Made by a program: the position numbers and the translations under genes. Positions 41,421 through 47,535 of a DNA stretch of 64,000 nucleotides are shown one piece after another. The stretch's first letter is position 1. The number at the start of each line of letters is the position of its first letter. Source of the DNA: a virus; the IMG/VR virus record IMGVR_UViG_3300050499_000294, positions 98 through 64,097 of that record; one strand, given 5' to 3'. The notes under the pieces are model-generated. The model searched no databases and had not been told where the DNA came from. It worked only from the letters and a program-made list of their open reading frames with translations.

Positions 41421-41653
41421 GCGCCGAACTCCTCGAGCGTCAACGGCTGGCCCGTGGCCGCCTCCAAGGGTTGAAGCCAGGCCAGGAGGTCTGGGGTATC
41501 CACCGGATAGGGGCGCTCATAGTCGTAGACCACATACCGATCGTTGATGTCACGTCCCCACAAATAGGGGACGAGCATGGCACACTCGTCGGTCGTAAAA
41601 ACGGGGACGCCCCGACGCAGAATGACATAGCGATGTCGGGCATTCAAGCTCAT
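41417..41653 (-). CDS. Hypothetical protein ending in a copy of the minor-head C-terminus
   Basis: Ends TGQPLTLEEFGA; ATGA-coupled on both sides. Confidence 0.55.
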   Translation of the reverse strand: MSLNARHRYVILRRGVPVFTTDECAMLVPYLWGRDINDRYVVYDYERPYPVDTPDLLAWLQPLEAATGQPLTLEEFGA

Positions 41654-42693
41654 GCCCCGAGCTCCTCCAGCGTCAATGGCTTGCCCGTAGCCGCCTCGAT
41701 TAATTGTTTCACCGTGAGCGATCCAGCACGAAACATGCGTGCCCGCGTTGGCCCTAAGACCGCATCCTGATAGGCCGTATCGCGGCGTGCCAGCCAGCTA
41801 CTCACGCTGTCGTTTGGCACGCGACCTCCTCCCGGTACCACCGGGATAAAGCTCGAACGTCAGGCGATATGGTACGGCACACCGGAGAGATAGGGAATGC
41901 TATGCCCCACCGGCGTATGATCGGCATCGGCGGTATACCGGAGGCCATTACGCGCCAGGCAGACGTGTGACGTGCGCGAATCGAGAATCGAATGATGTTC
42001 AATTTGAACTGCATCACTATTCACCATTGCCGTTGCAACGCGCGCCTCACTCACCGCATTGGTCGTCTGCGTGCGTAAGAGGCGTGCGGCATCCTCTTTC
42101 GCCTTCGCCATAATCCCATCTTGAAAGCCGTTCGCCGCCGTCCCTTGCACCCGTGCCGCGAGAGTCGGGAGGGGCTCCTCCAGGCTGACCCCCACCATGA
42201 GCGAATCGCCCACGCGGGTCACGAGCCCAGCGGCGGCGCGGCTCCACCAGTCGTCCCCGGTCGTGCTCAAGTCCGTGGGTGTGGCCGGGCTGGGGATGAG
42301 CGTCTGACGCACGGCCCGGCGCAAGGTCGTCTCGCTGGGCATCTCGTCAATGGTGCGGATCTCCGTCTCGGTATTCACAATGCGCCGCGTGACACGGGCC
42401 TCTTGCTCGGCCAGGGCCACGAGAAACGCGTCCACGTCGCGGGCAATCTGGGCGTACCGGGTCGTTACAAGGGGATCAATCTCATCCCGCACCAGGAATT
42501 GCACCGCCCGGCGCCGCGCCACGAGAAAGCTAAACTGCGCGGGATCGGCCTCCCGGAGTGCATGCAACAGATCCTGCTCCAGCAAGAGCAAGACCGCCCA
42601 GACCTCCTGGCGCTGGTGCGTCTCGGCCCGGCCCACCTGGAGCAAGCGCGCGGTGAAAGCGTCGGCAATCTGCGCATTGACGGGCTCGGTCAT
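41650..42693 (-). CDS. Minor head morphogenesis protein (SPP1 gp7/Mu gpF family) with one in-frame TGA at 41862-41860
   Basis: SILDSRTSHVCLARNG...VPYHIA*RSSFIP...YQDAVLGPTRARMFRAG; both track ORFs share one frame (1044 nt total). Confidence 0.85.
41830..41859 (-). promoter_or_regulatory. Candidate bacterial SECIS hairpin
   Basis: After TGA: 13 nt, then TCCCGGT-GGT-ACCGGGA perfect stem with G at the start of the loop. Confidence 0.5.
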
Positions 42694-44118: not shown

Positions 44119-45669
44119 CTAAGCCACCTGCCGCGTCGTCCCATTGCGTCCCGGTGGTGGGGTTCCTGGTCCTGGAGGCAGCATGGCGAGCGGCCGTTGG
44201 GCTTGCTCGTCTTCAATCAGCGCCTGTTCTTCCTCTACAGGCACAAGTGGCCTTGCAATCTCCCCACGTTGTAAACAGAAATAGAACGTTTCGTACGAAA
44301 TAGTACCGTTGAGCAACGCTTGCATCAAGGCCAGGAGCATCTGCGGTTGCATCACATTCGATACGAGGTCCTTGTTGAGGACCACATGCACGGACGGATC
44401 ATCCACATTTTCAGTGAGGCCCTGCCACCACGCGTGCACTTGCAGTGCCCACGTGAGCCCTTGACTGACGCTGCTCACGAGGCTCTGCACGGGGCTATCG
44501 CTGCCCGCCATGCGCCACTGCACACCCGTGGCCGTTTCCTGGGTCTCCGGTGGACCTTCGAGGAGCCGCGCGCCCATCGCGGCCATCATTTGCAGATCGG
44601 CTTTGAGGGCGTTCTCGTGCGGCTGGAGGCCCTGCCCGTGAAACTCGACGATCCCCACCTTGGCTTGATTATCGGGCAGGAAGAGGGCCGAGCTGGCCCC
44701 CACGTACAGCTCCGGGGGCGCTTCCATGTTGGCGGCAATGTAGAACTGCGGCATGGCGGTCAAGTGTAAGGCATGCTCGTAGTCCGCGCTGTGGCGCCAG
44801 TTCAAAAAGTTCCTTTGGACTAAGCCTTCGAGGAGCGACTTCTCGGGCGTCGGCTCGAGCGAAAACGGCGCCATGAAGCAGAACGGGAGGAAGTCGAGCG
44901 GTTGCCCCTGGCGGGTCGGCATCCACACCCGCTGGAGCGTTGCGGCCTGGGCATTGGTACGCTGGCCAATCGGATCTTCCAGCCACAAGCTCACCTCGTA
45001 GAGCCCCCGTTCATTCAAGCGCAGCACGCGGTACTGAATCTGGTCTTTGACCACAAAGAAGTCGGGCGTCCCCCACGGGCCTTGTGGGACCTGCACACAT
45101 TCCCGCAGCACCACGAGCGACAGGATCGTATCGCCCCCCCGCTGCATCGTGCGCCAGTTAATAATCTCCTCGGCCTGGTACGCCACCCAGTACGGGCGAC
45201 TCTGCGGCGGCGGCGGGAGCAACTGACCATCGGGCGTGAGGTCACCGGTCGGGAAGTCGACCAGGATGCCGAAGCGCCCCATGAGTAAGGTCTCACGCAC
45301 CGCCTCTTCACAGAACATGCGCAGCGAAATGCCGGTCTGCGTAATGTCGGCCAGTTGCGGCTCTAAGGCAGCAGGCCCTACGAGTTGCGGCTCGTGGCGG
45401 AATACCGAGCCGGTAATCCCATGCACGGCGTGTTCTGTGGCACTCGTCCACGCGGGGCGATCCCGATACGCGGCGTACTGTTCATCGCGGCGCATCCCCG
45501 CTGGGCGTGGCAGATACGCCGTCCCATTGCGCGCTGTGGACGTACTGCGGCGGACGGCATCGAGGGGCTGTGCCGACTTGACGGCGGCTTCGCCCAGGTA
45601 GCCGTCGCGCAGCATCGCCCAGAGCGGCAGCATGGCACGATACGCCGGATGCGGAAGCGTGACACTCAT
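44119..45669 (-). CDS. Portal protein (DUF4055 type)
   Basis: After the terminase; RPYWVAYQAEEIINW, NWRHSADYEHALHLTAMP motifs. Confidence 0.9.
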   Translation of the reverse strand: MSVTLPHPAYRAMLPLWAMLRDGYLGEAAVKSAQPLDAVRRSTSTARNGTAYLPRPAGMRRDEQYAAYRDRPAWTSATEHAVHGITGSVFRHEPQLVGPAALEPQLADITQTGISLRMFCEEAVRETLLMGRFGILVDFPTGDLTPDGQLLPPPPQSRPYWVAYQAEEIINWRTMQRGGDTILSLVVLRECVQVPQGPWGTPDFFVVKDQIQYRVLRLNERGLYEVSLWLEDPIGQRTNAQAATLQRVWMPTRQGQPLDFLPFCFMAPFSLEPTPEKSLLEGLVQRNFLNWRHSADYEHALHLTAMPQFYIAANMEAPPELYVGASSALFLPDNQAKVGIVEFHGQGLQPHENALKADLQMMAAMGARLLEGPPETQETATGVQWRMAGSDSPVQSLVSSVSQGLTWALQVHAWWQGLTENVDDPSVHVVLNKDLVSNVMQPQMLLALMQALLNGTISYETFYFCLQRGEIARPLVPVEEEQALIEDEQAQRPLAMLPPGPGTPPPGRNGTTRQVA

Positions 45670-47123
45670 ATATGCAACTCCATCGCCAAACTCCTACGCG
45701 GCGGCGGCGCAAACGTACAGCCGAGTGCATCGGCAAGATCACACGAATGCCCGAGACGCTTGCGGATATGGTCTTTATCTTCAACCACGAGTTGTCCCTG
45801 GCTATCAAACCCATACCCCACACTCGCCAATTCCCCCGCGAGGTCCTCGCACGCGTTCGCAGCCGGTGCACAAAACACCGGCTGGGCCGTCCGCAGCCAC
45901 TCCGCCACTTCCAGCCAGAGATAATCGCGGAGGAGACGTGGCTTCGCCTCCGCAGGATGACGCACGACGGGAGCCTTCTCCGCCACATTCACCGCCGTAA
46001 TGCCGACACGGATCACGCCCTGACGTTTTAACTCCGCAAGGCGATCATAGACACCTGCACCCAACCCAATGACATCAATGGCGACTTCTTCCACCTGCCA
46101 GGGCTCCAAGACCGCGAGAATACAGCCGACCGTGGCCATGGTGTCCTGACGTGCATAGACCTTGATCTGGTCAATGAGACTCCCATGCCGCAAGACAAGC
46201 GCTGTACGATCTGAACCCAGTCGCGCCACATCTACGCCAAGCCGCCGCACCCCACCAGGCTCGCGTCGTTCACGAGTCAGACAGGGCTCGGTGAGCTCCA
46301 GGGAGATCAGCACGTCGTCGGCTTGGCGCGGGAATTCGCCGTCCGCGCGCACGCGCACCACATTGGAGCCTTCGCCCCACTTCGCCACGAGGCGGGGGCG
46401 GTAGGAGGCATCCACCAACGGCGAATCCTGCGAGCGAAAGTGCAGCGTGGTATAACTGCCCCGGTCCTTGTGATGGGAGGCGTAGAACGTGCCATTGGTG
46501 CGGGTGGGATTCCCCAACATGAGGACGCGGGCCTCGGGCGTCGAGAGCGCCCCTTCCGCCGCCTCAAACACTTCTTCGGGCATGCCGCTGGCTTCATCAA
46601 GGACGAAGAGCAGATGCGTCGCATGAAAGCCCTGGAGGGCTTCGGGGTTTTCCTTGCGAGCGGTGCGGGCGAACGCGCCCCATTCTTTCGCGCTGGGGTC
46701 CACGAGACTATCCGTGAGGAGCTTAAAAAGCCGCGAGAGCCAGAAGCGCGGCGGGTCGCCACGGGCGGCGCTGAGGGCATCCGCATGCCGACGCCACTTA
46801 CTGAGCTCGCCCCACAAAATGTCGCGGAGCTGATGCGAGGAAGGAGCCGAACAGGGGACTTTGGCATAGTCGTGGGTTTCGAGCATCCAACTCACCGCCC
46901 AGGCGGCACTCGAACTTTTGCCAATGCCGTGCCCAGAGCGCACCGAGACTTTCGCGCCGGGAGGGAGGATGGCCTCCAGAATCTGGGACTGCTGCAGCGT
47001 GGGCTCCATACCAAAGCGTTGGCGGACATAGAGGACGGGGTTCTCGCGCCAGCGGTCGCGCAGTTCGAGATACTGCTCGAAGGCCGACGCGGGCTCCGCG
47101 AGGTCAGTGAGGAGTGTCGCCAT
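45666..47123 (-). CDS. terL: Terminase large subunit
   Basis: VRSGHGIGKS (Walker A), LDEASG (Walker B), GVDVARLGSD and DLADAL nuclease motifs. Confidence 0.95.
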   Translation of the reverse strand: MATLLTDLAEPASAFEQYLELRDRWRENPVLYVRQRFGMEPTLQQSQILEAILPPGAKVSVRSGHGIGKSSSAAWAVSWMLETHDYAKVPCSAPSSHQLRDILWGELSKWRRHADALSAARGDPPRFWLSRLFKLLTDSLVDPSAKEWGAFARTARKENPEALQGFHATHLLFVLDEASGMPEEVFEAAEGALSTPEARVLMLGNPTRTNGTFYASHHKDRGSYTTLHFRSQDSPLVDASYRPRLVAKWGEGSNVVRVRADGEFPRQADDVLISLELTEPCLTRERREPGGVRRLGVDVARLGSDRTALVLRHGSLIDQIKVYARQDTMATVGCILAVLEPWQVEEVAIDVIGLGAGVYDRLAELKRQGVIRVGITAVNVAEKAPVVRHPAEAKPRLLRDYLWLEVAEWLRTAQPVFCAPAANACEDLAGELASVGYGFDSQGQLVVEDKDHIRKRLGHSCDLADALGCTFAPPPRRSLAMELHI

Positions 47124-47535
47124 TGGGAGCCTTTCGCGCTTGAGCCAGGAGGCTGGCCAGCCCGTCACTCAGTTCCACATCGAGACGTTGCTTCGCGGGA
47201 GCCAACTCGGGGTCGATCCGTTCGAGGACTTGGAGCGCGAGCAGCCCATTGCCGTCTTTAATAGTCCGCAGGAGTGCCGCACGGGAGGCATGTTCGAGAT
47301 CGACCAGCCAGCGCTTGCGGGCTTCGGCAAGCGCCAAGGCCCAGTGGTCTTTGCGAGATTCCCACGTGGCAATAGTGCGGATCGACCGCCCCACTGCACG
47401 CGCTGCATCCAACTGGGTAGCGCCCATCATCCGAAGATACGCGGCAAGGATACATTTTTCCCAATAGGGGATAGGCGGCGGGTTGGCACGCTGCGCATAG
47501 GCAACTTTTGGGGGAGGCCGGTGAGCAAACGCCAT
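47104..47535 (-). CDS. terS: Terminase small subunit
   Basis: N-terminal HTH (GATQLDAARAVGRSIRTIATWE) upstream of terL. Confidence 0.7.
   Translation of the reverse strand: MAFAHRPPPKVAYAQRANPPPIPYWEKCILAAYLRMMGATQLDAARAVGRSIRTIATWESRKDHWALALAEARKRWLVDLEHASRAALLRTIKDGNGLLALQVLERIDPELAPAKQRLDVELSDGLASLLAQARKAPNGDTPH

Follow-up and report, generated by a model that had tools for sequence, protein, structure and literature searches.

A probable selenocysteine codon in the minor head protein gene of a rhizosphere phage

Does a tailed phage place selenocysteine (Sec) in a protein of its own head? The question is raised by a 64,000-nucleotide (nt) stretch of viral DNA (IMG/VR virus record IMGVR_UViG_3300050499_000294, positions 98 to 64,097 of that record; hereafter the window), in which the gene of a minor head protein of the SPP1 gp7 / Mu F type is interrupted by an in-frame UGA where the family has an invariant cysteine. 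An earlier note on this DNA attributed the UGA, together with a hairpin behind it, to Sec insertion by the host factor SelB, and left nonsense mutation, readthrough and sequencing error as options. Its further idea, a coupling of head assembly to selenium status, is speculative. The comparative analysis supports the Sec-insertion reading: TGA alternates with Cys codons among relatives, the codons downstream evolve under purifying selection, a hairpin is linked to the UGA, and independent sequencing runs agree. Codon 278 is thus very likely decoded as Sec, replacing the invariant Cys of the family.

An in-frame UGA at the codon of an invariant cysteine

The head gene lies on the minus strand, with its ATG at 42693 and its terminal stop, TGA, at 41652-41650. 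Decoding of the internal UGA would yield a product of 347 amino acids (aa), termination there a stump of 277 aa. Over residues 1-345 the read-through product aligns without a break to phrog_241 (head morphogenesis; E = 5.9e-54), and it passes the cut-off of Pfam Phage_Mu_F (PF04233; 30.0 bits against a cut-off of 29.6), whereas the stump, with 26.5 bits, fails it. Portal and terminase genes are located just upstream on the same strand, an order that is kept in relatives. Because of the phrog_241 and Phage_Mu_F matches and the adjacent portal and terminase genes, 41650..42693 is identified, at the level of sequence, as the gene of an SPP1 gp7 / Mu F-type minor head protein within the head module of a tailed phage.

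The codons described in the earlier note are in place (CAT ATC GCC at 41871-41863, TGA at 41862-41860, followed by CGT TCG), and the surrounding frame reads V-P-Y-H-I-A, TGA, R-S-S-F-I-P-V-V-P-G-G-G. Beyond the UGA the frame does reach the normal C-terminus of the family, as had been claimed, after 69 codons rather than the 70 given. The triplet itself was checked in reads: 41837-41866 is covered, at word depths of about 6-69, by Logan contigs of four independent rhizosphere metagenome runs that differ in sample and study, and positions 41860-41862 are identical in all of them. Two of the four runs contain a second strain, which shows 18 other differences nearby and keeps the TGA. The identical 277-aa product is also called in separate Joint Genome Institute (JGI) and Logan assemblies. 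The UGA at 41860-41862 is genuine.

A search of 5.8 billion proteins yielded 95 close homologues of the head protein. Every full-length homologue (344-479 aa) contains the motif PYHxxC, followed in nearly all by R-S, while about 30 cluster representatives, ranging from 100% down to 48% identity, have lengths of 275-278 aa and break off right after PYHxx, one residue short of the Cys. Eight further representatives, down to 38% identity, stop at the same spot among 15 billion proteins clustered at 50%. The alternation expected of a Sec codon was found in the DNA of relatives, drawn from viral, metagenome and assembly collections: of 48 non-redundant loci, 21 have TGA at the site and all others TGT or TGC; TAA and TAG do not occur. 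In a maximum-likelihood tree of 112 homologues (36 of them TGA forms), computed without the Cys/TGA column, 21 changes of state between Cys and TGA are needed, and at least 10 switches are forced by branches with a Shimodaira-Hasegawa-like approximate likelihood ratio (SH-aLRT) support >= 95. No premature stop was found elsewhere in the head gene among the homologues, including at the other invariant cysteine, C245. Such a confinement of stops to one invariant codon speaks against decay and is what a Sec/Cys family classically shows.

All complete TGA loci keep the frame open for 68-70 codons to a common conserved end, G(K/R)PLTLEELGA. The ratio of nonsynonymous to synonymous substitution rates (dN/dS) of the 69 downstream codons is 0.06-0.5 between TGA loci; in the closest informative pair (the window sequence and L001), it is 0.09 downstream and 0.08 upstream of the UGA. 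The Arg codon directly after the UGA is CGT, CGC, CGG or AGA across loci, while Arg-Ser itself is invariant. These patterns indicate translation and purifying selection beyond the UGA, and a pseudogene is excluded because downstream dN/dS is low and the Arg codon changes synonymously.

The same results bear on two of the alternatives. An inactivating nonsense mutation (i.e., a pseudogene) or a sequencing or assembly error could arise readily, TGA being one substitution from TGC or TGT; against this stand the identical base in four independent runs and several assemblies, the recurrence of TGA in 21 of 48 loci and in 36 of 112 homologues across the tree, the strongly purifying selection downstream and the lack of stops elsewhere in the gene. 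Runs, recurrence and selection together effectively exclude mutation or error as a live option, and its probability is regarded as negligible.

The second alternative is a split gene, in which the UGA would end a 277-aa N-terminal part, the C-terminal part would start at the in-frame GTG at 41841, and the two pieces would cooperate. A Shine-Dalgarno-like run, GGAGGAGG, is located 4 nt upstream of this GTG, and gene callers predict small open reading frames (ORFs) downstream of the UGA, both of which are consistent with a split. However, conservation at the protein level extends over the stretch from the UGA to the GTG, with Arg-Ser invariant through synonymous changes and the next residues fitting the family pattern. 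The Val/GTG is not conserved (e.g., Ile in L020 and L136), the same Val and the GG-rich run are present in unsplit Cys forms, and a break would not need to hit the Cys codon every time. A split gene is therefore considered highly improbable.

In one 117-kb long-read contig (L129), the portal gene is broken into three calls (L129:6208-7596), probably by indel errors, and the TGA of its head gene is less trustworthy than those in short-read assemblies.

The hairpin downstream of the UGA

Decoding of UGA as Sec in bacteria is associated with a selenocysteine insertion sequence (SECIS) hairpin. In the consensus bacterial SECIS (bSECIS; Zhang and Gladyshev model, PMC13188914), the apical loop has 3-9 nt and the upper stem 4-16 bp, a G is first or second in the loop, 16-37 nt separate the UGA from the loop, and the minimum free energy (MFE) is <= -7.5 kcal/mol (PMC13188914). 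The window hairpin agrees with this consensus in all respects, with a GGU loop, 7 bp, 20-nt spacing and -10.5 kcal/mol for the hairpin alone. The perfect 7-bp stem described in the earlier note was recovered (5' arm 41846-41840, loop GGU 41839-41837, 3' arm 41836-41830), and it is extendable, as also stated there, since further pairs form outside it in RNAfold. For the 45 nt from the UGA onward, the folding energy is -20.5 kcal/mol, with z = -2.62 relative to dinucleotide shuffles, 3 of 200 of which were as good. The second strain carries changes at 41836 and 41830, within the 3' arm, which convert U-A pairs to U-G.

A hairpin with the consensus loop size, G and spacing is present in all 19 testable TGA loci (i.e., those long enough), with the loop 20-28 nt past the UGA. 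Its sequence is GGU, UGGA, UGGU, UGGG, CGGUGU, GUG, UGUGC or similar, and the energy of the simple stem is <= -7.5 kcal/mol in 10 of the 16 TGA loci placed on the tree. Conservation of the hairpin was evident in two types, which keep 95.2% and 97.6% pairing with compensatory changes. In the GGU-loop type (six loci), the former value is the share of paired cells, with 2 compensatory pairs, compared with 43-57% in slid controls; at pair 21/29, G-C and U-A occur in three loci each, and U-A alternates with G-C at pair 17/33. In six Cys relatives, 42.9% of the cells in the same columns are paired. In the UGGN-loop type (six loci), the latter value is accompanied by 3 compensatory pairs, and Cys relatives reach 66.7%. 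Slid controls over both hairpin types range from 36 to 74%.

The Cys forms also differ from the TGA forms at the level of codon choice. In L002, a Cys form with the same IPVVPGG peptide as in the window, CCC for CCG and GTC for GTA, both synonymous, break the stem, and a qualifying hairpin is absent from 9 of 22 Cys loci. When codons were redrawn with each peptide held fixed (synonymous resampling), the SECIS-type hairpin statistic fell short of expectation in 17 of 19 TGA loci (mean z = -0.73) and exceeded it in Cys loci (mean z = +0.42; TGA vs Cys, Mann-Whitney p = 7e-5). The SECIS-type hairpin thus accompanies the UGA and not the Cys codon.

A separate observation concerns the Cys-form locus L113, where a 14-bp hairpin of -18.4 kcal/mol (L113:1063-1110) begins 5 nt after the Cys codon and is far stronger than the TGA-side hairpins.

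Decoding of the UGA and the nature of the product

In the proposed mechanism, the ribosome would meet the UGA, and the 17-nt hairpin 13 nt downstream, with its G-G-U loop, would act as a bacterial SECIS. The hairpin would recruit host SelB with Sec-tRNA(Sec), Sec would be inserted, and translation would proceed for 69 codons to the normal end, while terminating ribosomes would release the 277-residue stump. SelA, SelB, SelC and SelD would be supplied by the host. We infer that the inserted residue is Sec and not another amino acid. A capsid requires only few copies of SPP1 gp7, and a low yield of Sec decoding might be tolerable for this reason.

Several observations weigh against this reading. 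TGA is the only stop one mutation away from a Cys codon, so that its exclusive occurrence is uninformative beyond the position. No individual locus beats synonymous resampling; the window value of p = 0.14 is explained by its peptide, PVVPGG, which itself favours a palindrome. Whole-segment MFE relative to synonymous resampling separates TGA from Cys loci poorly. RNAalifold returned a consensus without pairs for 18 TGA sequences, and likewise for 18 Cys sequences, because the hairpins lie in several registers of the codon-locked alignment; pairs were for that reason counted per type, and both counted structures were derived from the same sequences on which they were scored. A test of hairpin against TGA in independent pairs had four usable contrasts, with which significance is unreachable. 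The hairpin is also retained in some Cys loci (L016, L005 and L113). An Rfam scan of 41600-42000, with E up to 10, found no family, bacterial SECIS being poorly covered there. Neither a sel gene in general nor selB or tRNA-Sec in particular was found on the phage record or on five related records, and no RNA sequencing runs containing the stretch were found.

Some of these points bear on programmed UGA readthrough without selenium, in which a near-cognate tRNA (Trp or Cys), perhaps aided by the hairpin, would keep the 277-aa and 347-aa products at a constant ratio, as happens in other viral genes with readthrough. A translated downstream frame and hairpins that are individually not significant against synonymous resampling are both compatible with it, as is the base after the UGA, which is C or A in all loci. 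C or A directly after UGA constitutes a leaky stop context. On the other hand, any codon for Arg, Gly, Ser, Leu or Trp could host a ratio-setting stop, whereas the independent switches, at least 10 in number, are all at the invariant Cys and none at C245. A Trp within the invariant His/Cys cluster would probably be non-functional, and the hairpins display the G specific to SECIS as first or second loop nucleotide and the expected spacing. Selenium-free readthrough is accordingly judged unlikely, and insertion of Sec is the reading preferred here.

Two other routes were rejected. Genome-wide reassignment of TGA (to Trp or Gly, codes 4 and 25) is ruled out, as TGA is an ordinary terminator here: it ends 24 of 68 large ORFs in the window, the head gene included, compared with 28 for TAG and 16 for TAA. 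A phage suppressor tRNA is rejected, as searches of the window, its flanks and related phage records (an 88%-complete 98.9-kb TGA relative and a complete 66.4-kb relative) revealed no tRNA of any type. As phage-borne tRNA and sel genes were not found, decoding must use host factors. A scan of the window for other read-through candidates gave none that was convincing, in a weak scan whose greedy ORF set missed the head gene itself.

Distant Cys-type relatives of the head protein occur in five bacterial genomes (G008-G012, behind L075, L067, L071, L068 and L062), belonging to Thermoanaerobaculia, Gemmatimonadetes, Myxococcus eversor, Planctomycetota and Desulfobacterales; selB scores above the curated cut-off in all five. 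No more follows from this than that such lineages commonly decode Sec, and for the phage it is circumstantial.

The environment of residue 278 was examined in predicted structures, which are confident (pLDDT, i.e., predicted local distance difference test, of 89 and 81.5). The AlphaFold model from 27 homologues, with the former value, has two parts, a long helical bundle at the N-terminus (residues 1-226) and a small mixed domain at the C-terminus. According to this model and the homologues, the C-terminal domain bears the invariant residues H233, C245, H264, H275 and C278. No solved relative of the Cys-bearing domain was found by Foldseek, VIA-align or profile search, and no solved structures resemble either part of the model beyond generic helical bundles. 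Residue 278, together with H233, C245, H264 and H275, might form a metal (probably zinc) or redox site; as no solved relative was found, the metal-site idea draws on the invariant His/Cys pattern only. The clade is further distinguished by its long N-terminal helical bundle and by a C-terminal extension of about 70 residues with a conserved tail, and effector domain fusion is absent.

Known selenoproteins are nearly all cellular redox enzymes. As in bacterial selenoprotein genes, of which E. coli fdhF is the prototype, the head gene has an in-frame UGA where homologues have Cys and a SECIS-type hairpin inside the ORF, and the frequent interchange of Cys and Sec is likewise a property of bacterial selenoprotein families. 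Unlike those genes, it is a tailed-phage gene for a virion or assembly protein rather than for a cellular oxidoreductase, and the machinery would be borrowed from the host. With the SPP1 gp7 and phage Mu F (gp30) proteins (PF04233; PHROG 241) it shares the sequence family, the portal/terminase neighbourhood and the His/Cys motif at the end of the Pfam domain; it differs from the known members, which have Cys at the site, by the UGA found here and in about one third of close relatives. MuF proteins are head components of phages with portal-terminase packaging (PMC5512222), and the MuF domain is often fused to injected effectors, the Cys not being discussed (PMC5512222, PMC5576092).

The closest viral parallel considered is the glutathione peroxidase of poxviruses (molluscum contagiosum and fowlpox), which is also virus-encoded and in which a UGA is decoded as Sec by the host machinery, as proposed here. 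The poxvirus proteins are captured antioxidant enzymes of eukaryotic viruses with a eukaryotic-type SECIS, in contrast to a phage structural protein with a bacterial-type hairpin. In the fowlpox enzyme the SECIS is within the coding region (PMC8310308). A 2021 review of recoding gives only the poxvirus glutathione peroxidases as viral selenoproteins (PMC8310308), and a 2026 review of the prokaryotic selenoproteome neither includes the head-protein family nor mentions phages or viruses (PMC13188914). No phage selenoprotein was found in full-text literature searches. The mechanism, bacterial UGA/SECIS recoding, is thus a known one; what would be new is its setting in a phage structural protein and the selenoprotein family itself.

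Taken more broadly, it is likely that a clade of soil phages with genomes of about 66-88 kb builds Sec into a virion or assembly protein via host SelB and has switched between Cys and Sec at least 10 times, which would make selenium availability or host Sec competence a factor that repeatedly exerts selection in head assembly or DNA ejection. In the MuF domain, residue 278 would then act as a selenium metal ligand or a redox switch, and the protein would be the first structural phage selenoprotein and found a new family. If this is true, MuF / gp7 joins the selenoprotein families, and phages use SelB-dependent recoding for a component of the particle. The at least 10 switches would provide a natural Cys/Sec series of one protein, in which the benefit of selenium at the site could be asked. 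The Sec form might also serve as a host-range marker, since such a phage would complete its head protein only in Sec-competent hosts.

Head module and phage genome

The features of the head module are listed in Table 1.

Table 1. Positions of the head gene, its recoding elements and neighbouring genes in the window
Feature	Position	Strand	Basis or remark
Putatively recoded SPP1 gp7 / Mu F-type minor head (head morphogenesis) gene	41650..42693	-	Translation, profile matches, homologues
In-frame UGA, candidate selenocysteine codon, residue 278	41860..41862	-	Replaces invariant Cys of PYHxxC(R)(S)
Candidate bacterial SECIS, 17-nt hairpin, 7-bp stem, GGU loop	41830..41846	-	13 nt after UGA; outer pairs ~41819-41860
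69 codons encoding the family's normal C-terminus, tail GKPLTLEELGA	41653..41859	-	Same continuation in relatives; dN/dS
True stop of head gene, TGA	41650..41652	-	Overlaps ATG of next gene (ATGA)
Next gene, 78 aa	41417..41653	-	C-terminal tail AATGQPLTLEEFGA repeats head-protein tail
Portal protein	44119..45669	-	DUF4055 E = 5.4e-25; phrog_145 E = 5.3e-107
Terminase large subunit	45666..47168	-	phrog_2 E = 1.9e-36

The head protein (coding 41653-41700, minus strand) and the small gene that follows end in near-identical tails of about 17 residues, AATGKPLTLEELGA and AATGQPLTLEEFGA, respectively. The common tail may be a docking or targeting peptide.

The recoding proposed for the gene exposes an error of annotation, in which gene callers split head genes into a 277-aa protein and a gap or mini-ORF. 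In public calls (L131:3834-4044 and L133-L136:2334-2544), a 210-nt gap or a mini-ORF of 56 aa comes after the 277-aa protein. The head-protein family is systematically mis-annotated in public data as a 277-aa 'hypothetical protein'.

The phage derives from rhizosphere metagenomes. No close cultured phage relative was found, and among 185,579 species genomes there was no close relative of the head protein, only Cys forms at 25-34% identity.

A 52-kb contig joins the right end of the window (RecT) to its left end (tail-fibre genes; L137:13671-21098 and L124/L125, e.g., L125:3327-13369). About 23.8 kb are missing from the window, which implies a circular or permuted element of about 88 kb; contigs of relatives measure 87.5 kb. 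The joining contig carries genes for a MobA/MobL relaxase, TrbI/VirB10, CagX/VirB9, VirB8, TrbL/VirB6 and TraG/VirD4, as well as an S26 peptidase, KilA-N, a GH9 glycosidase and beta-helix proteins. By its gene content, the element looks like a tailed phage with a conjugative type IV secretion system (T4SS) module, and the 'provirus' trimming of IMG/VR probably removed this module as host DNA. TraG and TrbI of the module have only 30-49% identity to PLSDB or to 600 Acidobacteriota and Gemmatimonadota genomes and are too divergent for placement; for an iron-permease-like gene, the ESM Atlas gave mixed phyla. In a 117-kb TGA-form relative, a 595-aa gene with a weak Cas12f1-like (TnpB-type) match (L128:12998-14785) is located a few kb downstream of the head gene.

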